Below, one piece after another: positions 10,576-42,300 of a stretch of 58,070 nt of DNA (positions are counted from its first letter, which is position 1; the number at the start of each line of letters is the position of its first letter). The stretch spans positions 1 to 58,070 of IMG/VR virus record IMGVR_UViG_3300048583_000114; one strand, written 5' to 3'. The notes under the pieces are model-generated. The model saw only the letters and a list, made by a program, of their open reading frames with translations. It was not told where the DNA came from and did no database searches. The translations under genes and the position numbers were made by a program. This DNA comes from a virus (lineage: Duplodnaviria > Caudoviricetes).

Positions 10576-10684
10576 CTTGGTTGCGCAACCAAGCCGCCTC
10601 GCAAGCCTCGGTGGTCGATGACGTTTGGCCCCGCGTTCTCACTTTGTGCGAACCGCCGCTTCTCACAGTGTGGTTGCGCAACCA
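10576..10684. promoter_or_regulatory. Two copies of the genome-wide palindrome TGGTTGCGCAACCA
   Basis: 10578-10591 (extends to the 18-bp CTTGGTTGCGCAACCAAG) and 10671-10684. Confidence 0.75.
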
Positions 10685-10870
10685 GCACAGTCGATGACGT
10701 TGGGCAGGGGTCGACCTAGTCTCCACCCAGCCGCGCGTCGCCCGCTAATGCAACTGAGTTGCGCGGAAAACGGGGCGGGCGTTACCACGCTGCTTGGTGA
10801 CGTTGGGCAGCAAACTGCGTTCCGCCGGTGTTGTGCTTGGTCGGCGGCGCAGTGTCGCCCAGCGGACGTG

Positions 10871-11195
10871 ACATAGTAAATGCGTACCATGGAGCTTCCC
10901 GGCCGCATGGTAATTTATGCCGCAAAAAGCCACTGGTATGGCAGAAAATTACCAGATTTCGTTGTTACTTTACGGGTCCGTCAGCCGGACCGGGAAGAAA
11001 ATTACCAGTACTCTGTTGTATACCATGCAGTGGTATCAGTGGTATCAGCGGTAACTACCGTGGTAGGTACTACACCTGAATCGGTAATTTTCTTCCGGGC
11101 TGGTCAAAAAATAGGCAATTTTGCCCCAAATATTACCATTCTTTGTTGCTGATACCATCGGGATCGGGAAGCTCCATGGTACGCAATTACTATGT
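10871..11195. repeat. Nested inverted repeats in an AT-richer non-coding segment
   Basis: 31-bp arms 10871-10901 / 11165-11195 (1 mismatch); inner perfect 14-bp arms 10993-11006 / 11083-11096. Confidence 0.9.
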
Positions 11196-11449
11196 TACCA
11201 TTTCGGGGCTTCGACAGATCGACTGAATAATCAATGGCTTAGGAAGGTAACTATTACGACTGATACTAATCTTTTAGGGGCTAATATGCTAATTTTCTTC
11301 CCGCTCGACCAAGTAGGGTCCACATCTCTCGACTTTGTCTTGGGCTTACGGCCGCGAAAAGTAACATGGTAACAGCCGCCGCCGCCCGAAAAGTTGTCGA
11401 CCCTTGTTTTCCCGGCTGGCAGAAAATTACCATATTAACACCCCCTGTA

Positions 11450-11477
11450 TTGACATAACTACCCATTGTGGTATAAT
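11450..11477 (+). promoter_or_regulatory. Consensus sigma70 early promoter P1
   Basis: TTGACA-16 nt-TATAAT with extended -10 TG. Confidence 0.85.
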
Positions 11478-11597
11478 ACTAGCTGGGGTAAGAGACACCA
11501 CATTTTCCTCCCCCAAGTTGCTACCACCCCGGCCACCTTGGTTGCACGCAACCAAGCCGCCCCGCTCCCTCTTTTCTTCCCCACACAGGAGTCGATC

Positions 11598-11942
11598 ATG
11601 GGTCGTCCCCGCAAGCCTCAGTCCCCACCACTCGTTCTCACAATGTCGAAACAGCAGCGACGCAGCGTCGCCGCCGTGCAGACCATCGTCAACCAGCCCG
11701 TCGACCCCGTATCCAGTCGCATCCGCCACCTGCACATCGACCATCCCCCCGGCGCGTCCAACCTCTGCTTCATGTGCGCCGCCGACAGCGCCAAGAGTTT
11801 CATGCACATGCTGGCTGGCCCCGCCGAGCAGTTCGCCAGCGGTCGACACCCGCGCGTGACCGTTCGCACCGTTGGTTGCGCAACCAATGGCCGCTCGCTG
11901 TGCTCCAGCTGCGGCCGCCCGCTCGACGCCAGACTGACGTGA
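11598..11942 (+). CDS. Hypothetical protein with AT-hook-like GRPRK N-terminus and CxxC...CxxC
   Basis: AGGAG RBS, ATG 11598; MGRPRKP, CFMC, CSSC. Confidence 0.7.
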   Translation: MGRPRKPQSPPLVLTMSKQQRRSVAAVQTIVNQPVDPVSSRIRHLHIDHPPGASNLCFMCAADSAKSFMHMLAGPAEQFASGRHPRVTVRTVGCATNGRSLCSSCGRPLDARLT

Positions 11943-11963
11943 ACCTGCGCAAGGAGATCGACA

Positions 11964-12266
11964 ATGCCAGTCCCCAGTAGCTACAGGCTGCAACCAGCCG
12001 ACCGGGTGATGCTCGAACGCCTGTTCCTCATGTGCCAGATGGCAGGCCATTACGTGTTTCACCCCCTCGACCGCGAACCGTTCGTGCGCTGCTTCATCCT
12101 CGACTTCGCCCCGAACAGCATCTTCAGCAGTGAACACGTCGACGTGTCCATCTTCAACGGCCATCTGATCGTCGAGCGGGGCGAGGCAATGACCGCCGGA
12201 GATACCGTCGTCCGCGCGCAGAACCTGCTCGCCCCGATGATGTGCGCCCTGCACACCAGCCCCTGA
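11964..12266 (+). CDS. MAG-motif family protein 1
   Basis: LERLFLMCQMAGHY; AAGGAG RBS. Confidence 0.8.
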   Translation: MPVPSSYRLQPADRVMLERLFLMCQMAGHYVFHPLDREPFVRCFILDFAPNSIFSSEHVDVSIFNGHLIVERGEAMTAGDTVVRAQNLLAPMMCALHTSP

Positions 12267-12314
12267 CCCAGTAACACCCTTCACCCACGCTGCACCACCA
12301 CAGGAGACTTGACC

Positions 12315-12458
12315 ATGCGCTTCGCCATCACCCTGTTCCTGCTCGCCCTGCTCTCCGCCGGCGGCACCCACATCGCCCTCCAGTTCGCCGACCACCTGAT
12401 CGGCTACACGCTGGCCCAGCACACCATTGATCGCGCAACCAGTGGGATGCGGCCATGA
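12315..12458 (+). CDS. Small membrane or secreted peptide (47 aa)
   Basis: AGGAG RBS; MRFAITLFLLALLSAGG...; ATGA overlap with the next gene; not in the ORF track. Confidence 0.6.
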   Translation: MRFAITLFLLALLSAGGTHIALQFADHLIGYTLAQHTIDRATSGMRP

Positions 12459-12766
12459 CCATCCCCGAACAGATGCGCCACGTGGCAAACATGCTGCGCA
12501 TGGCCGGGCTGGAGGTCGCCTGCGCGGAGCTATCCTTCGAGTCGCTGAACGACATACCTGACGAGAGGCCGGCCGAGAAGGCGCGGCTGTGGGTCTACCC
12601 CAAGGGCGACAGCTTCATCGGCTCCGCGACGGTGTGGTTCTATGCCAATCGACCCGTGCGGGTATCGGACGGAGCCAGCCAGCGCAGCGCGCGCACGCTT
12701 GTCGACGTTGTCGTCGGCATCTTCAACGCATCGACCTATGGAGCACACGGCCATGCCCACCCCTGA
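12455..12766 (+). CDS. MAG-motif family protein 2
   Basis: MRHVANMLRMAGLEV. Confidence 0.8.
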   Translation: MTIPEQMRHVANMLRMAGLEVACAELSFESLNDIPDERPAEKARLWVYPKGDSFIGSATVWFYANRPVRVSDGASQRSARTLVDVVVGIFNASTYGAHGHAHP

Positions 12767-13361
12767 CCACAACACCCCCGCCCACCACATGCGCATCCGC
12801 GCCCTCAAGGAGATCATCCGTCGACCGTACGACGGTCTCTATCATCGGCGCTTGCTGATGGCCGACGGCGCACTGATGTGCCCGGAGTGCGCATACGACA
12901 ACTACAAGCCGATCCTGCAGGCTTGCGCGCAGAGCGCCTACGGCACCCGCAACGACTGGCTGTGCGAGGAACACATCGTCACCGACACGTCTCACTGGCA
13001 CGGCCGCGACGACACCGGTGAGAATTTTCCCTGCTGCGTGCAATGCCAAGAACTGCTGCCGGCCAACTACACCGCGGCGCAGCGGCAGCGGGACTGGTCG
13101 CTGAACGCACGGCTGTACGACATGCTGGTCATGGCCGGCAAGGACGAACGACTGGGCAGCAACGCTCGCAAGTACCGGTCGATCGTCTACTTCGACATGG
13201 ACCCGCGCAGTAGCGACTCGACGGACTTGGTCACGGTCGCCATGGTCAAGGGCACGCTGCGCTACCTGCATGTCCACTGGTCGGTCGCCCCCGCCGTGCA
13301 TGCCCTGATCGAACCCATGGTCGCAGCACTGGTTGCGCAACCAGAGGAGACACAGCCATGA
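12753..13361 (+). CDS. Zn-finger-like N-domain fused to MAG-motif domain (member 3)
   Basis: CPEC...CVQC followed by ARLYDMLVMAGKD; GGAG RBS before ATG 12753. Confidence 0.75.
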   Translation: MPTPDHNTPAHHMRIRALKEIIRRPYDGLYHRRLLMADGALMCPECAYDNYKPILQACAQSAYGTRNDWLCEEHIVTDTSHWHGRDDTGENFPCCVQCQELLPANYTAAQRQRDWSLNARLYDMLVMAGKDERLGSNARKYRSIVYFDMDPRSSDSTDLVTVAMVKGTLRYLHVHWSVAPAVHALIEPMVAALVAQPEETQP

Positions 13362-13471
13362 CCTTCGACGAGATGGATCGCTGCATTAAGCGCCTGCAGA
13401 CCGTGCAGCGCATGGTCGCCCAGCTGCGGGCCGAGGATGCTGCCAACGACAACGAGGAGACCCAGTCATGA
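13358..13471 (+). CDS. Small coiled-coil peptide (37 aa)
   Basis: GAGGAG RBS; MTFDEMDRCIKRLQTVQRMV...; ATGA overlaps at both ends. Confidence 0.55.
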   Translation: MTFDEMDRCIKRLQTVQRMVAQLRAEDAANDNEETQS

Positions 13472-14100
13472 CCAACATCGACATCTGCGAACGCATCAAG
13501 GACATCTGCACCATGGCCGGCGTCCCGGTCGAGTACGCCAAGCCGGACTGGCACTACACGCAGGTGCCACGCTTGGGAGAGGACTGCCGTGCGTTCTTCC
13601 AGATCGACAACAAGGGACGGCTGTACGTGGCCGTGGATCACGAAGACCCCGCGGTGCGCTCACTGGTGGAGAATGCCTACCAGCTGGTGACCTCCAGCGT
13701 GACGAGCTTTACTATCATCGAGCCGGAGCCGCCGCATGTGCCATCCGCAGATGCGCGCAGCCGGACTGACGGGGGCCTGTCCCTACTGCTGTCCGACCAG
13801 TGGGGCAGCGAGATGCCCCGCGGGTTCGTCACCCAGATCGACCTGCGCACCTTCTGGGGCATTCGCCCGACGGACGTGGCCATCTGCTCGCAGCCGGACC
13901 ACCCGCACGTGTGGGACGCATGGCAAGACATCGTCGACCGCGCCATCCACCGGGTGAACATCGACGGGCAGACGTACGACTTCTACCTGTACGAGAACGG
14001 CAACCTTTGGCTGGCGTGCAACAAGCTGCTCACGGCAGAAGAACGTCGCTCGCTCTACGATGATTGCGCAACCAGCGAGTACGACGAGGAGGACGCATGA
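13468..14100 (+). CDS. MAG-motif domain fused to a C-terminal acidic domain (member 4)
   Basis: ICERIKDICTMAGVP; 210 aa. Confidence 0.8.
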   Translation: MTNIDICERIKDICTMAGVPVEYAKPDWHYTQVPRLGEDCRAFFQIDNKGRLYVAVDHEDPAVRSLVENAYQLVTSSVTSFTIIEPEPPHVPSADARSRTDGGLSLLLSDQWGSEMPRGFVTQIDLRTFWGIRPTDVAICSQPDHPHVWDAWQDIVDRAIHRVNIDGQTYDFYLYENGNLWLACNKLLTAEERRSLYDDCATSEYDEEDA

Positions 14101-14483
14101 ACCCGTTGGATGAAATAGACAAGCAGGCCGATGTGATCCGGCGCGCTGCCGACATGATGTGCATGGCCGGGTTGTTCCCGTCTGTGGGAGGCACGGACTA
14201 CCCGAACAAGCTGTCGAGTGAGGTGCTGGCGAGGCGCGGCAACCTGTGGGTCAGGGAACGGCGCGAGGACTTAATCACGGAGTCGTACACCGTGATGTTC
14301 GACTTCCACTCGCGGTCGATCTCCGTGCGCAAGGACGGCGCCAGCGGGCAGTACACGGAACAGCTGCGGGCGGGCCATGTGCGGTTCGCCGTGCACGACA
14401 CTGCCATCTACTCAAAGGGTAACGACGAAGCGCTGCGGCACATGGTCCACGAGGCGCACCGGCTGATTAGGGAGGAATCATGA
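14097..14483 (+). CDS. MAG-motif family protein 5
   Basis: IRRAADMMCMAGLF; GGAGG RBS, ATGA overlap. Confidence 0.8.
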   Translation: MNPLDEIDKQADVIRRAADMMCMAGLFPSVGGTDYPNKLSSEVLARRGNLWVRERREDLITESYTVMFDFHSRSISVRKDGASGQYTEQLRAGHVRFAVHDTAIYSKGNDEALRHMVHEAHRLIREES

Positions 14484-14764
14484 CGACACCGATGAAGATC
14501 GTGCGCCTGCGACGCGATGCGGCCGCGTTGCTGGAGCAAGCAGGGACAATGCTGAATTTGGCTGGCATGCAAACTTCCTTCTATCCCTCGGTACCTGCGT
14601 TGTGGGTCCGCGCTGGAGATGACGATGGCGCCCTTGGCGGGCTACGAGTCGGGATTATCCATAGCAGAGGGGAGATCAGGTTCACTTTCTCAACCGACTG
14701 TGACGAGAAAGTTGCTGCGGTGGCTCGCTTGGTTGTAAAGCAACTGCGCAAGGAGGAATCATGA
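14480..14764 (+). CDS. MAG-motif family protein 6
   Basis: LEQAGTMLNLAGMQ. Confidence 0.8.
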   Translation: MTTPMKIVRLRRDAAALLEQAGTMLNLAGMQTSFYPSVPALWVRAGDDDGALGGLRVGIIHSRGEIRFTFSTDCDEKVAAVARLVVKQLRKEES

Positions 14765-15018
14765 CCCTTCACAAAGCCCAGCAGCGGGAGCTGCTGACCC
14801 GGCTGTACGCCATGTGCACCATGGCTGGGTATGGTTGCCGACTGGTGCCGGCGCTGCCTTCGTTGTGGGTGGCAGGCCGCGTGCGGGTAGACGTGCAACG
14901 CTCCGGCAAGCTACTCACATACCCGGTCGGATTGTTCGACGACGAGCCGGAGGAAGCCATCAAGATCATCGCGCTCGTCAAGGCGTCGTACGAACAACTG
15001 CGCAAGGAGTTCCCATGA
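14761..15018 (+). CDS. MAG-motif family protein 7
   Basis: LTRLYAMCTMAGYGC. Confidence 0.8.
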   Translation: MTLHKAQQRELLTRLYAMCTMAGYGCRLVPALPSLWVAGRVRVDVQRSGKLLTYPVGLFDDEPEEAIKIIALVKASYEQLRKEFP

Positions 15019-15305
15019 GGAAGCCTCCGCTCAAGGCCGCGCAACGACGCGCCATCCTGCACCGGCTGGTCTCCATGTACACCATGGCGGGGTACGACTG
15101 CGACACCGCCGACTCGTGCTACCTCGCGTGGGTTCGCCAGCGAGGCAGTACCTCACTCGACAGCTTGTTCGAGGGCGTGCGGCTGGAGGTCACCCGCGTC
15201 GGCAACGTGCAGAGTGAGGTGCACTTCGCGCGGGAGTTCCATGTGAAGGTGCTGGAGATGCTACGCGTGGCCGCGCCGATGATCTACAAGGAGGTGGTGG
15301 CATGA
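15015..15305 (+). CDS. MAG-motif family protein 8
   Basis: LHRLVSMYTMAGYDC. Confidence 0.8.
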   Translation: MRKPPLKAAQRRAILHRLVSMYTMAGYDCDTADSCYLAWVRQRGSTSLDSLFEGVRLEVTRVGNVQSEVHFAREFHVKVLEMLRVAAPMIYKEVVA

Positions 15306-15562
15306 GTGCCAAGCTACTGACGGACCGACTGGCGATGGTTGCGCAATCAGCGGGGTTCGAGCTGGAGTATCTGCCGCTGGTCGAGTCCCAGATCGAGTGC
15401 CCGCAGCTGATCATCAACAATCCGCGCAACGAGTATGAGTGGGTCTCCGTCTACATCGAAGATGGCGCGGGCAACCTGCGCGTGTTTTCATCTGTCGAGG
15501 GTATTTCGCTGCGGCATTGGACCCAGACGACTATCACCGCGCTGATGAAGGAGGAGACATGA
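15302..15562 (+). CDS. MAG-motif family protein 9
   Basis: TDRLAMVAQSAGFE. Confidence 0.78.
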   Translation: MSAKLLTDRLAMVAQSAGFELEYLPLVESQIECPQLIINNPRNEYEWVSVYIEDGAGNLRVFSSVEGISLRHWTQTTITALMKEET

Positions 15563-15837
15563 TCGCATCGTGGCAGGAACTGACCGACCGCGTGAAGCTC
15601 GCACTGGAGATGGCCGGATACGTGGTCGAGCACGCCCCGTATTCCGACTCGAAGCTGTACGTGTGCCCGCCTAGCTGGGATCGCACTGGGCGGTGGATAC
15701 CCGTGTGGGTAGGGGCATTCCCGGAGGTTTCCTCGTGTGGCGACAACGACCCTGACGCGGCCGTGCTGCGGCAGCTGGTCACCGACATCTACCGGCACCT
15801 GTTGGAGGAGACATGTGTTCACGAATACAGGCTTTAG
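15559..15837 (+). CDS. MAG-motif family protein 10
   Basis: TDRVKLALEMAGYV. Confidence 0.8.
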   Translation: MIASWQELTDRVKLALEMAGYVVEHAPYSDSKLYVCPPSWDRTGRWIPVWVGAFPEVSSCGDNDPDAAVLRQLVTDIYRHLLEETCVHEYRL

Positions 15838-16073
15838 CCGAGCGGCTGCAGGACATGGCCAAGCTGGCGGGGCATGCCACCACGCTCCTTCCCGAGTCGG
15901 CATCGTCTTGGCCTGTGCTGATCGTTCGTGATGTGGTCGTTCGCAGGCAGCTGGCGAGGGCCATCGTGAACGACGACATGAACGAGCTGTCGCTGGACAC
16001 CAGCGGCGATGAAGCGATCTGCATATGGCTGCGCATGGTGTTCGACCAGCTCGTCGCACAGGAGGGGAGATGA
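15813..16073 (+). CDS. MAG-motif family protein 11
   Basis: AERLQDMAKLAGHA. Confidence 0.78.
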   Translation: MCSRIQALAERLQDMAKLAGHATTLLPESASSWPVLIVRDVVVRRQLARAIVNDDMNELSLDTSGDEAICIWLRMVFDQLVAQEGR

Positions 16074-16333
16074 AACCCACAGAGCGAACCGAGCGCGTGG
16101 CAGACATGCTGCGCATGGCAGGCTACGGCGTGCGCGTGTCGCCCGGACTCAGTAGCAACCGACTGGTGGTGCGCATTCCGGTGATGGAGTCGAGTCTGGA
16201 GGTGGCCGTGTGGATCGACAGCCCGGAGCCCTACATCAGCTTCTTGGCTGATGTCCTGCCCGACAACCACGGCCCCCGGCTGCGCTCGTTGGTCGAGGAA
16301 TGCTGTCGACAACTGGCGGAGGAGAGATCATGA
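16070..16333 (+). CDS. MAG-motif family protein 12
   Basis: TERVADMLRMAGYGV. Confidence 0.8.
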   Translation: MKPTERTERVADMLRMAGYGVRVSPGLSSNRLVVRIPVMESSLEVAVWIDSPEPYISFLADVLPDNHGPRLRSLVEECCRQLAEERS

Positions 16334-16622
16334 CCCAGAACGAGTTTGCCGAGCGGCTGGCCTTGGTGCTGGTCATGGCGGGGTATGCGATCGACCGGGT
16401 AGGTGCGACGCTCTACTGGAGGTACTGGAGGACTAGCGAGCGGGCCATAGGGAGCCTGCGATCATGGACAGTCAAGATCAGCATCACACCAGCTGGGGAG
16501 GCCGTCATGGACCGCGCAAACGCTGCCGATCCGCTGCCGATCCGCTGCCGATCGAGTTCGTCACCTTGGTATTGAACACAGCGGCTGCGCTTAGGGAGGA
16601 AGCATGGGCGACAAAGAACTGA
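16330..16622 (+). pseudogene. MAG-motif family protein 13, frameshifted by an 11-bp triplication (current stop at 16575)
   Basis: AERLALVLVMAGYA; CGCTGCCGATC x3 at 16521-16553; with two units the frame would run to TGA 16620-16622. Confidence 0.65.
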
Positions 16623-16635
16623 CGAAGGAGGGACA

Positions 16636-16905
16636 ATGAACAAGGCGCAGAGTGCGGCGCACGTGGCCCGCATAGACCGCATGGCGACCGTGCTGCAGAT
16701 GGCGGGGTACCGCGTGCAGCGGGTGAAGTGGAAGCTGTTTGTGAACCTGCCAACGACTGAGCTGGCCTTCGTGCCGTTCACGGTGTACCCAGATCAGGTA
16801 GTGGGCAGCTTCGGCCACTTATCCCGCGCTGTGCGCGACGAGGGAGCGGCTGTGATGAAGCTACTAGCGGAAGCTTTCGAGCTGACGAAGGAGAAGGCGC
16901 AATGA
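16636..16905 (+). CDS. MAG-motif family protein 14
   Basis: IDRMATVLQMAGYRV. Confidence 0.8.
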   Translation: MNKAQSAAHVARIDRMATVLQMAGYRVQRVKWKLFVNLPTTELAFVPFTVYPDQVVGSFGHLSRAVRDEGAAVMKLLAEAFELTKEKAQ

Positions 16906-17234
16906 GCACCGAGGTACTGCATCTAAAGCACTCGCTATCATCCGACGACGCGCGGGCGCTGCTGGAGCGCGCCGAGATGCAGTGCAGGATGGCCGGCATG
17001 CACACCCGGCTCACGTTGCGGATCACCGAGGGCTTGCACGGGATGCTGCTGGCCAGCCTGACCAACGAGGAGGTGAACGACCGGACCCAGTCCGTGGTCG
17101 ACTGCGCGCTGCTGCTGATCGCCGGCGACGAGCTGGCTACTGCCCACAACTCGTCCGAGGAGGCGTCCGCCGAGGTACTCAACACCATCGTGCAGTCCCT
17201 GCTCACAACCTATACAACACAGGAGGTGTATTGA
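16902..17234 (+). CDS. MAG-motif family protein 15
   Basis: LERAEMQCRMAGMH. Confidence 0.78.
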   Translation: MSTEVLHLKHSLSSDDARALLERAEMQCRMAGMHTRLTLRITEGLHGMLLASLTNEEVNDRTQSVVDCALLLIAGDELATAHNSSEEASAEVLNTIVQSLLTTYTTQEVY

Positions 17235-17258
17235 CATAACAACCTAGCAGAGTATAAT
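17231..17258 (+). promoter_or_regulatory. Consensus sigma70 promoter P2
   Basis: TTGACA-16 nt-TATAAT; shares TGTATTGACATAAC and GTATAATAC with P1. Confidence 0.85.
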
Positions 17259-17358
17259 ACATACTTCGCCGGGGAGTTTGCTGACTATTCGGCGAAGCGC
17301 AACACACTGGTTGCGCAACCAACACACTTCATATACTTCACATCAAGGAGATGCAAGC

Positions 17359-18420
17359 ATGGCAAGCAAAGAGAACGCCGCAGTGTCCGGGTCGTCGATC
17401 GGGTTCAAGGATGCAGTCGAGCTGATCGCCGGCCTCGCCCGCCACGATGTGCGGCACGTCGTGTACCTCGAAGGTGCTCCGGGCGACGGCAAGACGGCAG
17501 CTGCTGTCGAGGCTGCCTACGAGATGGGCTTCGAGTCCGACGAGATCATGCTGGTGCGGCCGTCGCTGCACGAGTCGGTCGACTACAGCGGGGCACTGTT
17601 CGTCGAGCAGGGCACGGCGCGCTGGGCGCCCATGGAGCTGATGAAGCGCATGACCGAGAAGCGCGCCTTCGTGGTCATCGACGAGATGGCCGACGCTCCT
17701 GTGATGACGCAGAACGTCATGTGCGGCGTCGTGTACGACCGGATGCTGTCCGGGCTGGTGTTCCATCCCGAGACCGTGTTCGTGCTCACCGGCAACCGCA
17801 CGATCGACCGCAGCGGCGCCAACCGGGTGGTGACCAAGCTGTACAACCGGGTGTGCCTGCGCACCTTCGTCGCGAACGTCGATGACTGGAGCACGTGGGC
17901 AGACGCGCAGGAGGGGTTCGTGCCGTGGGTGTCGGCGTTCCACCGGTACAACCGGGGCGAGTACTTCAGCAAGTTCGACCCGGCCGAGCGGCAGTCCCCC
18001 ACGCCGCGCCAGTGGGAGAAGGTCGCCATCCTGCCCGATGAGCTGCCGGCGAAAATCCACATGCACGCGGTCTGCGGGTACGTGGGTGACGCCGCGGCGG
18101 CCGCCTACGGTGCCTTCCGGGCGCACAAGGCGAGCCTGCCGACCCGCGAGGAGGTCGAGAAGTCGCCGGACACCGCCACCCTCCCCGCGGGGCTGGATGC
18201 GCAGTGGGCCGTGGCTGCGGCTGTCGCGCAGTGGCTAGGCGCGAAGAACGCCGCCAAGCTCGCCGAGTACATCGTCCGGCTGCCGAAAGACCTGCAGATG
18301 ATGATCTGGACCAGCGCCCCGCGCCGCCCCGGCAACGAGACGCTGATCACCCACGAGGCGTGGCTCAAGGCGACCTGTGCGCTCAGCGGGTCGTTGCAGA
18401 AAGCCAAGGCCGGCAAGTAG
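17359..18420 (+). CDS. AAA+ ATPase (MoxR-like)
   Basis: Walker A GAPGDGKT, Walker B VVIDE, TGNR..DR sensor, PTPRQW. Confidence 0.88.
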   Translation: MASKENAAVSGSSIGFKDAVELIAGLARHDVRHVVYLEGAPGDGKTAAAVEAAYEMGFESDEIMLVRPSLHESVDYSGALFVEQGTARWAPMELMKRMTEKRAFVVIDEMADAPVMTQNVMCGVVYDRMLSGLVFHPETVFVLTGNRTIDRSGANRVVTKLYNRVCLRTFVANVDDWSTWADAQEGFVPWVSAFHRYNRGEYFSKFDPAERQSPTPRQWEKVAILPDELPAKIHMHAVCGYVGDAAAAAYGAFRAHKASLPTREEVEKSPDTATLPAGLDAQWAVAAAVAQWLGAKNAAKLAEYIVRLPKDLQMMIWTSAPRRPGNETLITHEAWLKATCALSGSLQKAKAGK

Positions 18421-18486
18421 TTCCAGTGCTTCACCGGGCTGGTTGCGCAACCAGTCCCCCACCATCCTTTACTTCTGGAGAATGCA

Positions 18487-19329
18487 ATGACCAACGAAAT
18501 GCAACTTCCCCTGTCCCGCAAGGCCGTGCTGGTTCGCTGCAAGCTGTCGCTGCTCAACGTGTATGTGGGAGACGCCAAGGTGACCCACGAGGTCGACCAG
18601 CAGAACGGCGTGCACGGCGCCGGGCGCTACTCCAAGCGGCTGTTCAAGGGCTGCAAGCCGGTCGAGGACGCGCTGTCCGCCTACCGCGAGGTCTACGCCT
18701 ATGTCCGCAAGGCCACCGTGCCGTGGGACACCGGCTACGGGCTGCTGCCGTCGGCCAAGCTGCTGGAGTTCGGCGCGAAGTTCGGCTCGCTCAAGGCGAC
18801 CGCCCAGTCGCTGCGCGACGCGCTGGTCCCGCAGTGGGACGCGCTGGTTGCCGCCGACATCGCTCGCCTCGGGCCGCTGGGTTCCGAGTCCGACTACCCC
18901 GCCAGCCCGGTGGGCCGGTTCGACGTGTCGTACCTGATGACGCCCGTGCCGGAGGAGGGTGACTTCCGCGTCACCATGACCGATCTGGACCGTGCGGCGT
19001 TCCGCGAGGCGCTGAAGGATGCCGAGGACACGGTCGTGACCAACCTGCGGGAGTCGCTGCTGGAGCCCCTCAAGAAGGCCGTGCAGACACTCGGCGTGCC
19101 GGACGGGGAGAAGGGTGGCAAGTTCCACGACACGCTCATCACGAACATCGTGGAGGCCGCGCAGCGTGCTCTGGACCTGAACCTGACCGGCGACCCGCAG
19201 GTCGAGACGCTGGCCAAGGAGGCGCTGGCCGTGGCCGCGCCGTTCGCCGATGCGGTCGACGTGGTTCGCCGGGTGCCCTCCGTCCGCCAGTCGGTGCGGG
19301 GCAAGCTGTCCAACATCTGCGCGATGTAA
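18487..19329 (+). CDS. Conserved phage protein of the AAA/VWA module (DUF3150-like)
   Basis: 280-aa helical protein (GRYSKRL, TVPW..GYGLLP) between the AAA and VWA genes; family label tentative. Confidence 0.6.
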   Translation: MTNEMQLPLSRKAVLVRCKLSLLNVYVGDAKVTHEVDQQNGVHGAGRYSKRLFKGCKPVEDALSAYREVYAYVRKATVPWDTGYGLLPSAKLLEFGAKFGSLKATAQSLRDALVPQWDALVAADIARLGPLGSESDYPASPVGRFDVSYLMTPVPEEGDFRVTMTDLDRAAFREALKDAEDTVVTNLRESLLEPLKKAVQTLGVPDGEKGGKFHDTLITNIVEAAQRALDLNLTGDPQVETLAKEALAVAAPFADAVDVVRRVPSVRQSVRGKLSNICAM

Positions 19330-19339
19330 GGAGACTGAC

Positions 19340-21522: not shown

Positions 21523-21743
21523 TGACGCAACCCGACGGCACTGTGGCCGGTGCCATCGCCTACCTGAAGGCACGCGGCAAGTGGCAGGGCGCCGACGACA
21601 CGCAGTGGCGCCCACGGTCTGCCGCGAAGACCAACGTGGCCCGCACCTTCATCGAAGTGGCCAAGGAGACCGCTGACTCCGACGAGCCGCTGATCATCAC
21701 CCCGGGGCTGCGTCGGCTGGCCTCGGTGACGCGCAAGCGCTGA
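21519..21743 (+). CDS. Hypothetical protein
   Basis: GGAGG RBS, ATGA overlap. Confidence 0.6.
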   Translation: MMTQPDGTVAGAIAYLKARGKWQGADDTQWRPRSAAKTNVARTFIEVAKETADSDEPLIITPGLRRLASVTRKR

Positions 21744-21765
21744 TTGCGCAACCAAGGAGAACGAG

Positions 21766-22190: not shown

Positions 22191-22637
22191 ATGGCTTCAA
22201 AGAACAAGCTTCGTCCTTCGTTCGAGGATCAGCTCGAACTGCACAACTTCCTGCTCGGGCACAAGACGCAGCTGGAGGCGATGCAGCGCACCGAGGGCAA
22301 TGCGTGGATCGCCAAGAACTTCACCGGCTTCGCGCCCAAGTCGACGATCGAGAAGGCCGCGCGCCGGGCTGGGATCAAGTACAAGCGCGTCCCCGCCGGT
22401 GCCGCGCTCGTAGGCTACCCCCGCATCCCCGCCGCGCGCAGGGCAGAGTCGACCCCCGGCCGGTCCACGGCACACTACGTGGCGCTCGCACTGCGCGAGT
22501 TGCTGATCCGGTTGGGTGAGCCGGTGCCGGGCTATCTACACTACATCTGCAGCAACAAGGCCATCGCGGACGTGTACGAGGAGTTCGAGAAGGAGCGGGC
22601 CGCGCTGCGGGAGAAGCTGCCGGCCGAGAGGGGCTGA
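22191..22637 (+). CDS. Hypothetical basic protein, possible DNA-binding
   Basis: AAGGAG RBS, 148 aa, directly upstream of the polymerase. Confidence 0.65.
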   Translation: MASKNKLRPSFEDQLELHNFLLGHKTQLEAMQRTEGNAWIAKNFTGFAPKSTIEKAARRAGIKYKRVPAGAALVGYPRIPAARRAESTPGRSTAHYVALALRELLIRLGEPVPGYLHYICSNKAIADVYEEFEKERAALREKLPAERG

Positions 22638-25142: not shown

Positions 25143-25174
25143 GCCACGCTGGTTGTGCAACCAAGGAGACTGAC

Positions 25175-29218: not shown

Positions 29219-29526
29219 CCCCCATCCGCAACGAGCGGGGAGTCAAAGCCCGGGTCAAGACGATACTTAATTCTTACGGGCCGAGAGTCTGGTACTACAT
29301 GCCAGTGCCCGGTGGCTATGGCCGATCAGGTGTGCCAGACTTCGTTGGTTGCGCAAACAAGCGGTTCTTCAGCATCGAGACCAAGTTCGGCGGCAACCAG
29401 CCGACCCTGCACCAGTCGCAGGAACTCGCCGCCATAAAGGTTGCCGGGGGCTTGGCGTTTGTCATCGACGAGACGAACGTGGAAGGGCTGTCCATCGCCA
29501 TGGACCTGATCCTGCGAGAAACCTAG
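29215..29526 (+). CDS. VRR-NUC domain nuclease (Holliday-junction-resolvase-like)
   Basis: E..VK, GVPDF, IETK, PT..Q, AGGLAFVI. Confidence 0.88.
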   Translation: MTPIRNERGVKARVKTILNSYGPRVWYYMPVPGGYGRSGVPDFVGCANKRFFSIETKFGGNQPTLHQSQELAAIKVAGGLAFVIDETNVEGLSIAMDLILRET

Positions 29527-32877: not shown

Positions 32878-35778
32878 ATGGGAATGGATTTGCGCGGGTT
32901 CTTCGGGCGGACGCTGCCGCCGGAAGGGCGATACGTGTTGCTCGTGATCCGGTCGAGTGGGGCACGATTCAACATCCAGACAGAATCACTCGATGAACTG
33001 GTCGACATGGTCGACACGATGGACCGTCGAGCGGACACGACGGTGTACCACGCGGTAGGTGCATTCGCCGACAGCATCATCACCGGCGAGAAGGTCCGCA
33101 GGCTGCAGGAGGATGCGCGAGCGTTCCGCACGCTGGCGATGGATGTGGACGTGGGGGCAGGCAAGCCCTACCAGACGCAGCAGGAAGCCGCCCTCGCCGT
33201 GCTCAGGGCCGCAGCGGACAGCGGGATGCCGGAGCCGATGCTGGTGTCTTCCGGCTACGGGGTGCACGTCTACTGGCCCATGTCCGCGGATGTCGACCCG
33301 GCGCAGTGGGTGCAGATGTCGACCCAGCTGCTGGCGCTGATGCGTCACACCGGCGTGCAGGTCGATGCGAGCAAGGTGCGTGACCCGTCGATGGTGCTGC
33401 GCCCGCCGGGCAGCAACAACAAGAAGCGCGACCCGTGGGTGCCGGTGCGCGTCGTGCAGGAGGGGTCGATCACTGCCCCGGCCGACCTGCAGATGGTGCT
33501 GGCCAATGCGCCAGCGGAAGTCGTGGCAACCCTCACCGCCCCCGCCGCCAAGGTGGCAGCGCCCCTGTCCAGCATTGCCAGTGCGATCGTAGGCGACGCA
33601 CCGGAGTACCCGCCGCTGGCCCCCGCCGACATGGAGCCTCAGTGCGCGCAGCTGGCTGAAGCCGCTGCGACCGGGTTCGCCGGCAACTACAAGGCGTGGA
33701 TCACCGCGCTGACGGTGGCGAAGTTCTGCGAAGACCCGCTCGACGCAGCCCATCGGTGGTCCGAGCATGCCCCCGACTACGACGCAGCCGAGACCGAGCG
33801 CGTGCTGTCGACACTGCATGCCACCGGCCCGTCGCTGTGCCAGACCTTCGCCCTGCACAACCCGTCGGGGTGCGCAGCCTGCCCGCACAACGGCAAGATT
33901 CGCAGCGTGGCTGCGTTGTCCGGTGCGTCTCTACCAACAACTGTGCCGGTGCCGCCTGCGGCGCTGGTTGCGCAACCAGCCGCTACCCTGACCCTGCCAC
34001 CCGGCTACGTCACCGCCAACCGGGCGATCTATCGCGTCATCGACGGCGTGCGCGATCTGGTCATCGAGTACCCGCTGATCGTCATCTCGCACACGACCGA
34101 GGTCAGTCAGACGACGGAGGCCCGTTGCGCAGAGATCATGGCGGACATACCGTCGGAGGGATGGCGGACATTCCTGATCCCCATGAAGGCCCTGTACGGG
34201 CGCGACACGGAGCTGGCCGAGGCGCTGGCGAGTCGTGGCGTGTACCTACCCAAGGGAAGGACCGCACGTGTTGGAGCGTACATCGTGGACTACCTGAAGC
34301 AACTGCAGCAGGCAGCAGCCGCAGCCGAGGTGTACCGGCAGATGGGCTGGTCGGCGCGGGAGGATGTGTTCGTGGCAGGGTCGACTGCCTATACTGCGAC
34401 GGGCAGCGCGCCGTGTCGCGTCGGAGACCGGGTCCGCAGCATTTCCGGGTCGTTCCGCACCGAGGGGCAACTCGCCAACTGGAGCGCGGCGGCCAACGTG
34501 TACAACTCGCCTGAGCTTCGCATGCACGCCTTTTGTCTGCTGGCGATGATGGGCGCCCCGCTGATGCGCGGCTCGGGACTGGATGCCGCGGTGCTGTACA
34601 TGTACAGCCCGCAGTCAGGCACCGGCAAGTCGACCACCGGCCTGCTCGGGCTGTCAGCCTTCGGGGAACCCGGCCGGATGAAGATGCAGGCGGCCGATAC
34701 CCACAACGCGATGATGATGCGCTTCTCGCTGCACGGCTCGACACCGGCCTACATCGACGAAGTGACCACGATGGACGACGAGCAGATGCGCATGCTGCTC
34801 CTTCAGGTCACCCACGGGCAGCAGCGCGCCCGGCTGCACTCGGATGCGTCGTTGCATGACGCAGTGCAGTGGAACACGATCGTGGCGGCTAGCGGCAACC
34901 GGGACATCCACGCCGGGCTGGCAGCAGCAGCGAACAACGAGGGAGCGCAGATGCGGGTGCTGCAGGTAACCCTGCCCCCGACGGCGACGTTCTCGCGGAC
35001 CAACGCGGGCGCGCGGATCAGCGCCCTGATCGACTCGAACTACGGCCACGCCGGCCCGATGCTGGCGCAGGAGATCATCCGCATGGGTGGGCCGGGCAAG
35101 CTGTTCCGCGCGGCCGAGGAGTCGATGGATGCGACATACAAGTTCCGGTTCGAGGGGCCGGAGCGGTTCTGGCGGGCCATCGCGGTGTGCGCCTATGCGG
35201 CCGGCACGCTGGCCAACCGGATGGGGCTGGTGCAGCTCGACGTGCCGGCGATCATGAAGGCAGCGGTCGAGAACGTGGACATCCTGCGGTCGTCGGTGCG
35301 CGAGGGTGCGCTCGACGGCATCGACCTTGTCGGCGAGTTCGTCCGGCAGCTGGCGCCGCAGATCGTAGTGATGAAGCACAATCAGGACAGCGGGCTGCAG
35401 ACACCGCAGTACGTGCCGCCAACAGGCGAGGTGGTGGGCAGGCTCGACGCGCTATGCACGAACCGGGTCAGCTTCTCCGGTGGTTCCCTGCACATATCCA
35501 GCAGCGCGCTGCAGCAGTGGGCGCGCAAGCGGGGGACCGATCAGGCGACGATCCTGACGCAACTGATGCGCGACGGGGTGGCAGTTGTGCGGCCGAGCAC
35601 GGCGAGCCCCAACAAGGTCACGCTGACTCGTGGGACGGGTTCCCTCGGGACGGCAGTGAGGTGCTACTCGATCAGCCTGACGCACCCGCGTCTGATGAGC
35701 GCGATCGGGAGCAGTTTCGACAACAAGCAGCCAGCAATCGCACCACTGCAGGTGGTGCCGGCAAACGCTGCACAATAG
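32878..35778 (+). CDS. Primase-helicase (AEP/RepB-like primase, PriCT-like, Zn, DUF927/SF3-like helicase)
   Basis: MDVD, SSGYGVHVYW, VLRPPGS.N, C..F..NP.GC..CP, Walker A SGTGKST, YIDE. Confidence 0.88.
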   Translation: MGMDLRGFFGRTLPPEGRYVLLVIRSSGARFNIQTESLDELVDMVDTMDRRADTTVYHAVGAFADSIITGEKVRRLQEDARAFRTLAMDVDVGAGKPYQTQQEAALAVLRAAADSGMPEPMLVSSGYGVHVYWPMSADVDPAQWVQMSTQLLALMRHTGVQVDASKVRDPSMVLRPPGSNNKKRDPWVPVRVVQEGSITAPADLQMVLANAPAEVVATLTAPAAKVAAPLSSIASAIVGDAPEYPPLAPADMEPQCAQLAEAAATGFAGNYKAWITALTVAKFCEDPLDAAHRWSEHAPDYDAAETERVLSTLHATGPSLCQTFALHNPSGCAACPHNGKIRSVAALSGASLPTTVPVPPAALVAQPAATLTLPPGYVTANRAIYRVIDGVRDLVIEYPLIVISHTTEVSQTTEARCAEIMADIPSEGWRTFLIPMKALYGRDTELAEALASRGVYLPKGRTARVGAYIVDYLKQLQQAAAAAEVYRQMGWSAREDVFVAGSTAYTATGSAPCRVGDRVRSISGSFRTEGQLANWSAAANVYNSPELRMHAFCLLAMMGAPLMRGSGLDAAVLYMYSPQSGTGKSTTGLLGLSAFGEPGRMKMQAADTHNAMMMRFSLHGSTPAYIDEVTTMDDEQMRMLLLQVTHGQQRARLHSDASLHDAVQWNTIVAASGNRDIHAGLAAAANNEGAQMRVLQVTLPPTATFSRTNAGARISALIDSNYGHAGPMLAQEIIRMGGPGKLFRAAEESMDATYKFRFEGPERFWRAIAVCAYAAGTLANRMGLVQLDVPAIMKAAVENVDILRSSVREGALDGIDLVGEFVRQLAPQIVVMKHNQDSGLQTPQYVPPTGEVVGRLDALCTNRVSFSGGSLHISSSALQQWARKRGTDQATILTQLMRDGVAVVRPSTASPNKVTLTRGTGSLGTAVRCYSISLTHPRLMSAIGSSFDNKQPAIAPLQVVPANAAQ

Positions 35779-36100: not shown

Positions 36101-36101
36101 C

Positions 36102-39300: not shown

Positions 39301-42300
39301 ACGTGACCAGAATCTCCTTGGCCAGCGTGTCGTTCGGGATGCCCATGATGCGCGCCCACGACTGCACGAACACGTCCCACAGGTTCTTGGCCATTTTCAC
39401 GAGGCTGAGCTTCTTGCTCAGCTCGGGCGTGACCTTCATCTCCTTGAGTACGCGCTGCAGCGCCGGGTCGGTCATCGAGTAGGCGAGCATCTCCTTGACC
39501 TTGCCCAGCTGATCGAGCTTGCCAGCCAACAGCGCCTCGATGCCGCTCATCGACTGGCCGGAGGCTTGGTTGGTCAGCCCGAGGCGATCTGCGTGGCCGC
39601 GCGCTTCTGCCGCGCGAGCGGCGAAGTCGTTGGCCAGCGCAAGCATGCGGTTGAACAGCGGGCTGCCCACGTTGTCCGCCGCCCACACCGCGGTGGCTGC
39701 GTGCACACCTTCGTGCAGCGCGTAGCTCCAGTACGCCCCGTTCGAGGAGATAGTGATCGTCGGGTCTTGCTTGCCCGGCACACCCGGCACGAACGCAGCG
39801 ACGGCGCTGGGGGGCAGCGTGCCATCCTCCAGCTTCACCTTCGGGTTGAAGTTGATCCGCAACAGCGCGTTGGCGAGCGTTGCCTCGATCGGTGACAGGT
39901 CGCGCATGGCCAGATACCGCAGCAGCGCGCGGTAGCCGGTGTACTTGGTCGGCTTGCCGAACTCCCCGAACTTCCCATCGAGGATGTCCTGCAGCTTGTC
40001 CATGGCCACGTTGCCTGCTTCGACCTTGCCCCGGATCACATCGGTGAACACCGGCTGCAGCGCGCGGGTGCCATCGGCGTTGAGCGAGCCCATGCGGTAC
40101 TGGTGCCACAGCGCAGCGAAGCGGGTCACCGCCGGCGAGTCGCTGGCCGGCGTCGCCGCCTTGGCCACGCCCAGCAGGTAGTTGATGTCCGCCTCGCCGT
40201 GCTCCTCGACCAGCGCCGAGAAGTAGCTGTTCGCCTGCATCGTGAGAGCGCGTATCGCTTCGACTTGCTGCGCAGTCGACTCGCTGGCCTTGGCAGCAAC
40301 CTTGGTGAACGGAGAGGTGTCGCCCAGCTTGTCCGTGGCCGAGCGCGGTCCCAGCTTCTGCGCGAGGCTGCTTATCAACTTGCCGAGCTTCTCGGCGATG
40401 CCGTTAAACTCGGCGCCGCCAACGACTTCCAGCGCGTACTCGGTGTCCGCATCCAGATCGAGGCCCGGGCCATCCGCCTTGGTGATCTCGCCGGTTTCTT
40501 CGTCGACCTCGTCGTCCAGCAGCATCTTGGCGACGGACTTCGTGGCGGGCTTCTTGCCTTTGCCACCGGCGGCGTAGTTCGGCGCATCGACGCGCCCGAC
40601 CAGATTACCGGCCAGCACATCGGGGTCGACTTCCACCCGCTTCAGCGCGTCGGCCACCGCGGCGCGGTAGGCCATCGGCACCGCCTTGCGCATCGCCTTC
40701 TGGAACTCCGGCGTCAGGTCGTAGTCGGTCAATGCGCCGATCGCCCGCGCAGCAGCCCGTGCCACGGCGTTGCGTTGCCGGCCCGGGGGGACGTTGCCCA
40801 CGGCGGCGAACATGGCCGCCAGCCGCTCGGGCAGGGTCTTGATGTCGCCGGCAGGCGTGTCGGCTTTCTCGTCGTACACCTTGGTGACTGCAGCGCGCAG
40901 CTCTTTCGGCGGCAGCGCCTTGGCCGTCATCGGCGTGGGCGCCGGGGCCAGCAGGTCGCTGGCCAGTGCCTTGCCCTGCTCCTTGGCTTCGGCCTTGGTC
41001 ACCTTGTCGGTGGTGCGCTCGCCAGCGGGCTTCTCGGCCGGGGCCGAGGGCTTCGGTGCCTTCTGCTCGGCCGTGGCCTTCTCTGCAGCTGCGACTTCTC
41101 CACGGATGCGCTCGGCAACCGCTGCCGCTTCGAGCTGCGCGGCGCGCTCCTTCTTCGACATCGCCTTGGCCGGCTTGGCGGCGGGCTTCTCTGCAGCCGG
41201 TTTCTTGGCCTTCGCCGCGACCTTCTCCTTGACGGGCGCTGGTTGCGCAACCGGCGCAGTCTTGGCAGCGGCCGGCTTCTTCGCTTTCGTTGCGATGTGT
41301 TCACGCAGTTTGGTGGCCGCAGCGGTCATCTTGCCGGCGAACTCGTCAGCTACCTGCGCCAGCCCCGTCGAAACAGGCGGCGGGGTTACAGGGCTTGTAA
41401 CCTCCGTCGGGGCCGCGGCGAGTTCTTCCTGCAGCTGCGCTTGCAGGTCTTCCTCGGTCTCCGGCGCAGCACGCTTGGCCTTAACACGAGTATTTGCAGC
41501 GACCGCCTTGGTTTTCGCCGCAGTCGTTGGTTGCGCAACCGGCGCGGTAGCAGCGAGTGCAGCCTTCGCCCGCTTGGCCTTGCCGCGGACCTTGGCACCA
41601 GTGCCCAGAGCGGGCGCAGCCGGAGCGGTAGTCGTGGTCGGACCTTCTCCTGCAGGAGCCGCAGGCTGCGCAGCCGGAGGCTCGGTCGGGGGTGTGCCCT
41701 GCCGACCCTTGGCCAGACGCTTGGCCGTGGCGGTCTTGTCCGCAGCGGAGAATGCGCCCTCTACCGGCAGCTCTCGACCTTCGACGATGCCGGCCTGATC
41801 GAACAGCGAGCCGGGAGACTCCGGGCCGACCATGTCGCTTGGCGGGTTGCTCAGCAGCGCGCCCGGACCCATCGGGATGGCCTGCGCCGGCGCCATCGGC
41901 TCGGTCATCGGCGTGCCGAACAGGTCACCCTGCGTCGGCTGCAGGCCGAACAGCTCCATCTGGCGCGGGTCGATCTCGGGCATGCGCGACACCGTCGGCG
42001 GCACGACCTCACCGGGAACCTGCGGACCTTGGAACTGCGGATCGTCGGGGAACAGCTGACCGTTGGGCGCCGGCGGCCGGGGCGGGTTGTAGAACCTCGG
42101 GTCGACCTGCGGGGTCTCGGGCGGGCGCGGGCGGCCAGCAGCACCAGCAACACCACCAGCGAGGGCACCGGGCAGCGCCCCGAACACGGCGGCGGTGGCG
42201 AAGTTCTCCTTCGACTGGTCGTTCCAGAACGTCTGCTCCGGGTTGACCGCCATGCGGCCGACCTGTTCCAGCATCGTCTGTCCCAGCTCACCGGCAGACT

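Follow-up and report, generated by a model that had tools for sequence, protein, structure and literature searches.

The window analysed here, that is, the whole stretch of DNA under study, is the complete phage record IMGVR_UViG_3300048583_000114 of IMG/VR, a single contig of 58,070 bp. Copies of a 14-bp palindrome, TGGTTGCGCAACCA, are dispersed over this genome and are the subject of the present analysis. Judging from matches to PHROG families, the phage is podovirus-like and its genes fall into two arms (Table 1). The structural arm includes the genes of the large terminase, the portal, the major capsid protein, and a 2482-amino-acid (aa) internal virion protein whose N-terminal part is a transglycosylase. 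The early/replication arm includes those of a MoxR-like ATPase, a DUF2201/VWA metallopeptidase, a DNA polymerase, an exonuclease, a VRR-NUC-like nuclease, a helicase, and a primase. Its gene content makes the phage appear lytic: no integrase or repressor family was found in the open reading frames (ORFs) scanned, which comprised 47 + 25 translations compared with Pfam and 44 + 41 compared with PHROGs. No tRNA or Rfam family was detected in the window. A megablast search of 10–30 kb gave no nucleotide match to named phages. The closest named kin are the Rhizobium phages RHph_TM3_14A, TM27A, TM27B, and TM29 (53% identity for the capsid protein, 32% for the polymerase), with which the gene order is common. 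A literature search returned no paper with the motif and none naming these Rhizobium phages.

The palindrome occurs in seven exact copies, where 0.00035–0.0096 are expected under Markov models of orders 1–5, and none of 100 dinucleotide shuffles yielded any. It is by far the most over-represented word in the genome. With up to two mismatches, 15 copies are found (seven exact, seven with one mismatch, one with two), against 0.28 expected and a maximum of 2 in the shuffles. The motif is real. Two further copies carry a 2-nucleotide (nt) central insertion, and the total of 17 sites used below consists of these and the 15. A scan with a variable centre also returned a loose form with a 1-nt insertion at 32453. 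The original prediction, which was made from the letters alone, had reported the exact and one-mismatch copies, a looser copy near 12428, and an insertion variant around 11537; every one of these positions holds, the variant occupying 11539–11554, and the enrichment over a Markov background agrees with it.

The dyad symmetry continues through the centre, which reads GCGC in 12 of the 15 copies with up to two mismatches. The centre is 4 or 6 nt long among the 17 sites. The consensus with flanks is (Y)TGGTTGCGCAACCA(R), the bases at −1 and +1 being paired in 8 of the 17 sites. Several copies had been described as extending to 16–22 bp. This is borne out only in part, by an 18-bp palindrome at 33965 and, by eye, a 22-bp palindrome with one mismatch at 41240; elsewhere the extension is modest. 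Most copies have no sequence in common beyond 14–16 bp. Repeat analysis pairs the 9623 copy with the 11539 copy, and the latter has an additional 11-nt 3′ flank in common with the 10578 copy. Because the two late-arm copies, at 41240 and 41528, display the same deviation and encode the same peptide in an Ala/Lys/Pro-rich stretch, they perhaps stem from one duplication and are not independent. Intragenic copies use two reading frames, VAQ[P/S] and [G/D]CA[T/N], and leave the third unused, so that the claim that they are read in different frames stands. The exact 14-mer is present in 85 IMG/VR stretches, of which the 80 listed lie on 80 different contigs; two of the stretches listed contain three copies at 84-nt spacing, which are unrelated tandem repeats. 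The 16-mer was met in at least 120 stretches of species genomes (one genome per species), the 80 listed lying all on different contigs from diverse taxa.

Table 1. Palindrome copies, promoter-like elements, genome arms, and candidate binding proteins in the window
Feature	Position	Strand	Context
Variant copy TGGTTGC-AT-GCAATCA (2-nt central insertion, one arm change)	9623..9638		5 nt past the -10-like TATCAT of the third CTAACTATCAT box; 88 nt before start of gene 9727
Exact copy	10578..10591		In 1.2-kb non-coding region; 34 nt past last CTAACTATCAT box of second cluster
Exact copy	10671..10684		Non-coding; 93 nt after the 10578 copy
Variant copy (2-nt central insertion)	11539..11554		62 nt past promoter 11450-11477; 43 nt before start of gene 11598
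Exact copy	11873..11886		Within 3′ part of gene 11598-11942; read VGCATN
Two-mismatch copy	12428..12441		Final codons of gene 12315-12458; 13 nt before start 12455
Exact copy	13330..13343		Followed by GAGGAGA and start 13358; overlaps end of gene 12753-13361
One-mismatch copy	14061..14074		End of gene 13468-14100; 22 nt before start 14097
One-mismatch copy	15336..15349		Within gene 15302-15562; read MVAQS
Exact copy	17308..17321		Non-coding; 50 nt past promoter 17231-17258; 37 nt before start of MoxR-like ATPase gene 17359
Exact copy (16-bp palindrome with flanks)	18440..18453		Intergenic; 33 nt before start 18487
One-mismatch copy	21741..21754		AGGAGA directly 3′; 11 nt before start 21766
One-mismatch copy (central C to T)	25150..25163		Intergenic; AGGAGA directly 3′; 11 nt before start 25175
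One-mismatch copy	29346..29359		Within VRR-NUC-like gene 29215-29526
Exact copy (18-bp palindrome with flanks)	33965..33978		Within primase gene 32878-35778
One-mismatch copy	41240..41253		Within gene of 2482-aa virion protein (minus strand); TAPVAQP
One-mismatch copy	41528..41541		Deviation and peptide TAPVAQP as at 41240; Ala/Lys/Pro-rich stretch
First cluster, three CTAACTATCAT boxes	9537..9617	+	Upstream of gene 9727; probable GAACAG-type -35 and TATCAT -10
Second cluster, four CTAACTATCAT boxes	10437..10543	+	31-34-nt spacing; upstream of copies 10578 and 10671
Promoter-like TTGACA-16-TATAAT, 12/12	11450..11477	+	Promoter scan
Promoter-like TTGACA-16-TATAAT, 12/12	17231..17258	+	Promoter scan
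Structural arm	9059 down past record start, then 58070 down to 36102	-	PHROG matches
Early/replication arm	~9.7-36.1 kb	+	PHROG matches
Candidate binder	9727..10386	+	219 aa, pI 10.0, basic; proposed on gene logic only; no domain, no homologue
Candidate binder	11598..11942	+	114 aa, pI 11.1, two CxxC pairs; proposed on gene logic only; first gene past promoter 11450
Candidate binder	22191..22637	+	148 aa, pI 9.8, all-helical; weak lead

The placement of the copies is non-random. Fifteen of the 17 lie within 9060–36100, an interval that covers 46.6% of the genome (P = 4.5e-4). Non-coding DNA, 5.6% of the genome by gene calls, contains eight (P = 1.5e-6), three are in the last codons of a gene, 13–22 nt ahead of the next start, and six are deep within genes. 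A called start codon follows within 45 nt in seven cases, compared with 7.0% of all positions (P = 8.9e-5); this proximity was scored with gene calls, as random positions score an uninformative 52–72% without them. The copies are densest around a structured non-coding region at 10.85–11.45 kb and become thinner with distance. Their spacing is irregular (coefficient of variation, CV, 0.98), with gaps of 93–1972 nt and of 3.3–7.3 kb, and up to 18.4 kb. The region at 10850–11450 is itself of lower GC content and contains, over 600 nt, nested long inverted repeats (in one of them, arms of 34 nt are separated by 263 nt and are 94% complementary) together with AAAATTACCA-type repeats. As RNA, it folds with −224.9 kcal/mol (z = −10.5 against 20 shuffles) and has no Rfam match. 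Replication may start there, or the region, which lies downstream of the second promoter array, may give rise to a large structured RNA.

Both promoter arrays are formed by an 11-nt box, CTAACTATCAT, present in seven exact copies against 0.07 expected. All are on the plus strand, in arrays of three and four at 31–37-nt spacing, and each box has a GAACAG-like word 14–17 nt upstream. The arrays are probably tandem early promoters with TATCAT as the −10 element. With the two TTGACA-16-TATAAT promoters of the scan, the early arm has four promoter regions, and past every one of the four a palindrome is met, after 5, 34, 62, and 50 nt. The chance of this arrangement is 1.6e-6 under a naive null, and 7.7e-4 when the eight non-coding sites may fall only within the non-coding part of the arm (2889 nt). 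The original prediction had two copies shortly past promoters that it termed P1 and P2; these fit the promoters at 11450 and 17231. It was also right to place three copies, at 13330, 21741, and 25150, immediately before AGGAGA. Half-site-like words, GCGCAAC (17297–17303) and GCGCAA (21732–21737), are found 4–5 nt upstream of the copies at 17308 and 21741. They pair with the palindromes in predicted RNA folds, and may represent a third half-site or chance.

Close relatives of the phage were not found with the primase or the ATPase in IMG/VR, with the ATPase or the portal in metagenome contigs, or with the DUF1800 protein in species genomes. Kin were recovered through the capsid protein alone and are distant (599 of 600 stretches confirmed, best identity 62%). 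Seventeen relatives were compared: 15 IMG/VR contigs (G001–G015, capsid 54–62% identical), 50 kb of RHph_TM3_14A, and 50 kb of Pseudomonas phage KPP25. Inverted repeats with 5-nt arms and a centre of 0–6 nt were counted and compared with the maximum that any arm reached in 20 Markov-1 randomisations (between 5 and 11). Analogous motifs are present in the relatives: seven of the 17 possess a dominant short inverted repeat of their own that exceeds every randomisation. These are CACTA-GC-TAGTG in G002 (24 copies), ACTCC-(0/1)-GGAGT in G006 (22 copies), TTACC-N5/6-GGTAA in G007 (68–69 copies), CCTAC-(0-2)-GTAGG in G009 (19 copies), TACCT-N3-AGGTA in G015 (15 copies), and repeats with the arms of G007 (TTACC/GGTAA) in G010 (19 copies) and RHph_TM3_14A (31 copies in 50 kb). 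G005 (12 versus 9) and G004 (12 versus 11) are marginal, and G008, G011, and G014 have a family with 6-nt arms only (7, 5, and 4 copies, against 0.01–0.04 expected). The 5-nt-arm statistic of the window is not outlying, in part because the filter dropped two-letter arms; the evidence for the window is therefore the 14-mer test. The original prediction had proposed a scan of related phages. At least seven of the 17 distant relatives have a dispersed repeat, each with its own sequence, and no other multi-copy holder of the palindrome of the window is known among the matches listed.

The repeats of several relatives are also found ahead of genes. Positions within 45 nt upstream of a start account for 14 of 25 copies in G002, 12 of 22 in G006, 25 of 69 in G007, 8 of 15 in G015, and 6 of 19 in G009, compared with 6–8% of all positions, although the statistic is inflated in G006, G007, G015, and RHph_TM3_14A because the repeat there supplies the ribosome-binding site. 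No such enrichment is observed in G010 (3 of 19) and G008 (1 of 9). At early gene starts of G007 and RHph_TM3_14A, the ribosome-binding site is in the centre of the repeat and the start codon 1–5 nt past it. Identities of the capsid and terminase proteins delineate the subclades {G002, G005, G006, G009}, {G007, G010, G015}, {G008, G011, G014}, and {G001, G012}. Within subclades, half-sites differ by single steps: TCCCTAC, TCACTAC, CCACTAG, and TTACTCC; TTACC and TACCTC; TCACAC, TTACTC, and TTACAG. Such stepwise drift with the phylogeny fits a phage-borne reader that co-evolves with its site, and is harder to accommodate with a host factor. The phage of the window stands apart from the rest of the group, and its half-site does not resemble theirs. 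As a separate observation, a 75-aa protein of G002 (16857–17084, minus strand) matches the Acb2/Tad1 hairpin domain (E = 1.9e-18), an anti-defence nucleotide sponge family.

The explanation that we favour, tentatively, is that the palindromes are operator or roadblock sites on duplex DNA for a phage-specific, probably dimeric regulator. It is preferred because of the enrichment, the placement, the association with promoters, the signatures of a duplex site presented below, and the repeats in relatives. Under this explanation, a sequence-specific and probably dimeric protein, for which the phage is a likelier source than the host, would recognise (Y)TGGTTGCGCAACCA(R) in double-stranded DNA. In the early arm, the approximately 15 copies would serve both as operators and as roadblocks to transcription: one overlaps the point at which the transcript of the first early gene presumably begins, one stands 34–62 nt downstream of each other promoter region, and the rest occupy short gaps ahead of selected genes. 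Binding would turn the whole arm down, or tune it jointly, for instance at the early-to-late change. What we infer here is the binding of a protein, its phage origin, and an effect on transcription.

Three proteins had been put forward as binders, and they remain candidates only (Table 1). Gene 9727 forms a one-gene unit, with three CTAACTATCAT boxes, the variant palindrome at the presumed transcript start, the gene, and a strong terminator at 10395–10418 (−26 kcal/mol for the folded 53-nt window). Gene 11598–11942 carries the palindrome twice, once in the leader and once in the 3′ part; profile searches with its product gave weak treble-clef/zinc-ribbon hints (E 0.1–0.3), and the Atlas nothing. 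The Atlas model of the 22191 product aligns with HTH_21 (helix-turn-helix) clusters with TM scores of 0.32–0.48, all below threshold, which is the sole structural hint. A BLASTP comparison of gene presence and absence over 15 relatives yielded no gene whose distribution follows that of the motif, since homologues of the small early genes are not detectable. When 133 small proteins of G002, G006, G007, and G009 were compared with Pfam, the helix-turn-helix or zinc-finger matches were scattered and at no conserved position. Small basic ORFs of zinc-finger-like character are also present at 26445, 27899, and 28920. A 77-aa HNH protein encoded at 36102–36335 matches Pfam with E = 0.0044, under the family cut-off, and its presence in relatives does not track the motif.

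A number of observations weigh against this assignment. No DNA-binding, ParB, repressor, helix-turn-helix, or integrase family was found in the ORF translations scanned, as the original prediction had already noted for CI-like repressors and ParB; the reader may be of a novel fold missed by family scans. Homology searches with the three candidates returned the proteins themselves and one low-complexity match only, so that all are orphans, and the AlphaFold single-sequence models of the two that were folded are unusable (pLDDT 47 for 22191 and 45 for 9727). This phage appears lytic, whereas it is from temperate phages or plasmids that dispersed operators are best known. At 13330, 21741, and 25150, (G)AGGAGA follows directly and the start codon comes 11–14 nt on, a tightness that resembles a translation-level element. 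In G006, G007, G015, and RHph_TM3_14A, the Shine–Dalgarno sequence even lies within the 3′ arm or the centre of the repeat, with starts 1–10 nt off. Adjacency to ribosome-binding sites, positions in leaders, and the variable centre (4 or 6 nt) speak for a role in RNA or translation, and a centre that varies, here as in G006 and G009 (0/1) and G007 (5/6), is awkward for a rigid dimer. Most copies are away from promoters, the remaining sites having no promoter-like sequence upstream. A −10-like hexamer is present within 40 nt upstream of only 2 of the 17 copies, and this association is at chance level in relatives (for example 3 of 25 in G002, versus 12%). The motif was also considered as a sigma-70 promoter, and rejected for want of a −10-like association. 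No repeat of this kind appears in the census of G001, G003, G012, G013, and Pseudomonas phage KPP25, and G004, marginal at best, counts with them; G001, G003, and G004 make up three of the five near-complete relatives obtained first. Finally, the relatives are so distant by their capsid proteins that their motifs may be analogous rather than homologous to that of the window.

The copies could instead act in RNA, as a small hairpin 5′ of ribosome-binding sites or in leaders that a phage or host protein reads. The proposed roles are translation control, processing of polycistronic RNA, stabilisation of 5′ ends, or antitermination of the N/nut type. We regard such an element as unlikely, although it accounts well for the seven copies close to starts, the three that abut AGGAGA, the copy in the presumed leader at all four promoter regions, and the Shine–Dalgarno sequence often within the motif of G006, G007, and G015, many copies of which are start-proximal. 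A varying centre is natural for a loop, and the central base of the G006 repeat is never T on the sense strand (A 5, C 5, G 6 of 16). Two of seven contexts fold better than shuffles at z ≤ −2.9, those of 11539 (−3.2) and 17308 (−2.9), but the score of 17308 stems from other pairing. The hairpin of the 14-mer amounts to −2.7 kcal/mol, and that of the 16-mer with flanks to −5.3 kcal/mol; it is part of the minimum-energy fold at only three of seven sites. One-mismatch copies have A.C in five cases, G.U in one, and another combination in one on the sense strand, none of them compensated. Covariation is likewise absent from the centre of 88 TTACC-N6-GGTAA sites of the relatives (27 Watson–Crick pairs versus 28.0 expected), and the 10-nt forms of G006 and G009 are unable to fold (0.0 and −0.1 kcal/mol). 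The six copies deep in genes, and the 43 of 68 copies in G007 that are not start-proximal, do not suit the RNA element either. No boxA-like word is found near any site, the sole one of the arm being at ~36.1 kb, and there is no Rfam match. Symmetry through the centre is not needed by a hairpin loop, and speaks for a duplex. A hairpin is thus disfavoured and duplex DNA is the likelier target, without the matter being settled. Of the two possibilities offered by the original prediction, a site for a dimeric DNA-binding protein is the one retained, and the RNA hairpin is weakened by its low stability, its uncompensated changes, the lack of a consistent fold, and the copies deep in genes.

A DNA site could also have a purpose other than transcription, such as a replication or recombination signal, nicking, loading for compaction or in a partition-like manner, or a mark of self-identity for a phage enzyme. 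The density of copies near the structured region at 10.85–11.45 kb and their presence inside genes would suit such roles, which we nevertheless hold to be rather improbable. In relatives, the spacing is more even than random in G007 (CV 0.58, none of 5000 simulations as low) and RHph_TM3_14A (CV 0.66, fraction 0.009), but it is irregular here. The arms of the G007 repeat are nearly always perfect (69 perfect versus 13 with one mismatch), a strictness more like that of an enzyme site than of a regulator site. Sequence-specific nicks are documented in phage genomes, but at sites described as asymmetric and one-stranded in the account available (PMC3517423), whereas cutting at a palindrome would affect both strands. 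Apart from the HNH protein below cut-off, no ParB, recombinase, or nickase family came to light, and placement past all four promoter regions is not predicted by these roles. The suggestion of parS-like sites finds no support, because no ParA or ParB family was found in the ORFs scanned, where the sole ATPase is the MoxR-like AAA_5 protein. That the sites belong to a host protein, a global regulator or a nucleoid-associated protein recruited or titrated by the phage, is improbable. It would agree with the failure of family scans to reveal a phage binder, and a shared host factor could explain why G007, G010, and RHph_TM3_14A, of one subclade or near, have the same arms. However, the half-sites of the related phages change stepwise with phage phylogeny within subclades, which makes the host binder of the original prediction less likely, and the single, scattered matches of the 16-mer in species genomes, among the at least 120 stretches of which 80 are listed, are a weak point. 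Least probable is a selfish or neutral repeat, a palindromic cassette of motif and ribosome-binding site spread by recombination with no function of its own. The motif with AGGAGA is indeed common to three copies, the flank common to 10578 and 11539 is extended, and 41240/41528 look like one duplication. Most copies, however, are alike over 14–16 bp only, and those inside genes, being in two frames, must have arisen by point changes. Placement past all promoter regions and strict upkeep in relatives argue for selection.

Other features of the window were noted. The module at 17359–20512 (plus strand) consists of the MoxR-like AAA_5 ATPase, a 280-aa protein, and the DUF2201 metallopeptidase/VWA protein. 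It is present in most of the relatives that bear an early arm (ATPase in 10 of 15, 280-aa protein in 7 of 15, DUF2201/VWA protein in 11 of 15). Upstream, at 11964–17234 (plus strand), about 14 small early genes in tandem encode proteins of 81–210 aa that have an N-terminal ...M-x-x-M-A-G-[YHLFM]... motif in common. The array constitutes a family of paralogues that matches nothing in Pfam or PHROGs and for which the 15 relatives have no homologue. The structural arm contains an unusual cargo for a phage at 305–4080 (minus strand), a pair of genes for DUF1501 (490 aa) and DUF1800 (767 aa) proteins, with no counterpart in any of the 15 relatives. Ahead of the first late-arm gene (start 9059), a promoter-like TTGACG-17-AATACT at 9193–9165 (minus strand) precedes a GC-rich dyad and a run of T. 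The dyad and T run, within 9060–9200 and recognised by eye apart from the promoter scan, may be an attenuator of the late genes. A virion RNA polymerase with hairpin promoters was considered and rejected, as the 2482-aa protein matches transglycosylase and internal-virion families only.

Returning to the favoured explanation, of operators for a phage-specific regulator, the regulon of a phage protein that reads these sites would comprise the first early gene, the zinc-finger-like gene, the MoxR-like ATPase module, and several orphans, and the sites would be a pointer to a new DNA-binding family. Dispersed operator-like repeats are familiar from temperate actinophages and plasmids. To our knowledge, they have hardly been described for apparently lytic phages of Gram-negative hosts. 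The wider interest is the clade-wide, drifting family of analogous repeats. A broader proposal, possible but doubtful at this stage, is that a clade of ~55–67-kb podophages, including the cultured Rhizobium phages, carries 15–70 copies per genome of an own 10–16-bp inverted repeat, at starts and in genes. Its half-site would drift stepwise, its reader would be a phage protein that evolves fast and has a fold missed by family libraries, and the palindrome of the window would be one, perhaps independently evolved, instance. The at least seven related genomes with their own versions, one of them that of a cultured Rhizobium phage, offer a natural series for the co-evolution of site and reader. 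If true, the clade-wide system would be the proteobacterial, lytic-phage counterpart of the unexplained extended start-associated sequences (ESAS) of mycobacteriophages, and an experimentally tractable one; it may illuminate the start-associated repeats of those phages.

The palindrome was compared with several known families of dispersed sites and, as far as its sequence allows a judgement, membership in each fails on a defining feature. KorB operators of IncP plasmids and the dispersed ParB/SopB sites of plasmid prophages serve one dimeric global regulator of the ParB family. With KorB sites, the window has in common about a dozen palindromes of 13–16 bp on a ~60-kb replicon, at promoters as well as far from them; it differs from these systems in having no ParB-family or ParA match in the ORFs scanned. 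The inverted repeats bound by the phiC31 repressor and the P1 C1 operators, the latter asymmetric, belong to temperate phages with known repressors, and resemble the present case in that one operator is repeated in intergenic regions over the early part of the genome. Phage lambda has two boxB copies for N/nut antitermination, and boxB needs a structured loop and boxA. The likeness is a phage-specific small dyad in transcripts past early promoters, with its own sequence and reader in each phage. By contrast, the window has ~17 copies, many far from promoters, with a hairpin of −2.7 kcal/mol and no boxA-like word nearby.

The stoperators of Cluster A mycobacteriophages, bound by the L5 repressor, are many copies of a 13–14-bp site, largely in short intergenic gaps, that act as roadblocks past promoters. 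They are asymmetric and oriented with transcription, in temperate phages with a known repressor. The eight non-coding copies of the window and the copy past each of the four promoter regions are similar, whereas its motif is a symmetric palindrome in a phage that appears lytic and has no repressor or integrase family in the Pfam and PHROG scans. The nick sites of tf, phiKMV-like phages, and T5 are likewise dispersed in podophage or T5 genomes with a function that is unexplained; in the parts of the source that describe them, they number ~4–14 copies with a 7–19-nt consensus, asymmetric and on one strand (PMC3517423). The site of the window fails this one-strand criterion, because a palindrome is present on both strands by definition.

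Stoperators are the contrast case for the start-associated sequences (SAS) and ESAS of Cluster K mycobacteriophages in the relevant passages of Pope et al. (PMC3203893). As characterised there, SAS is an asymmetric 13-bp word that comprises the ribosome-binding site, 3–7 bp from the start, and ESAS consists of 17-bp imperfect inverted arms with a variable spacer and a consensus that differs by subcluster (PMC3203893). In the same passages, ESAS are deemed likelier to be DNA-binding sites, since departures from the consensus do not support RNA pairing (PMC3203893). The function of ESAS and SAS was still awaiting experimental verification in 2025, according to the section of a recent article that mentions them (PMC12699233). 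On these partial descriptions, SAS differs from the motif of the window, which is symmetric, lacks the ribosome-binding site, and stands 11–43 nt from starts. Both SAS and ESAS belong to temperate siphoviruses of actinobacterial hosts, whereas the motif considered here is a 14-bp perfect palindrome; the arms are of 5–7 nt here and in the related phages, against 17 in ESAS, with no relation of sequence or host. In the variable spacer, the lineage-specific consensus, and the lack of support for RNA pairing, the behaviour seen here and in the related phages resembles that of ESAS, but with the shorter arms and unrelated sequences it may not amount to the same kind of element. The location in the non-structural half of the genome (15 of 17 copies here), just upstream of start codons, is common to both, and among the systems compared ESAS is, as described in that source, the closest known case both in placement and in being unexplained.

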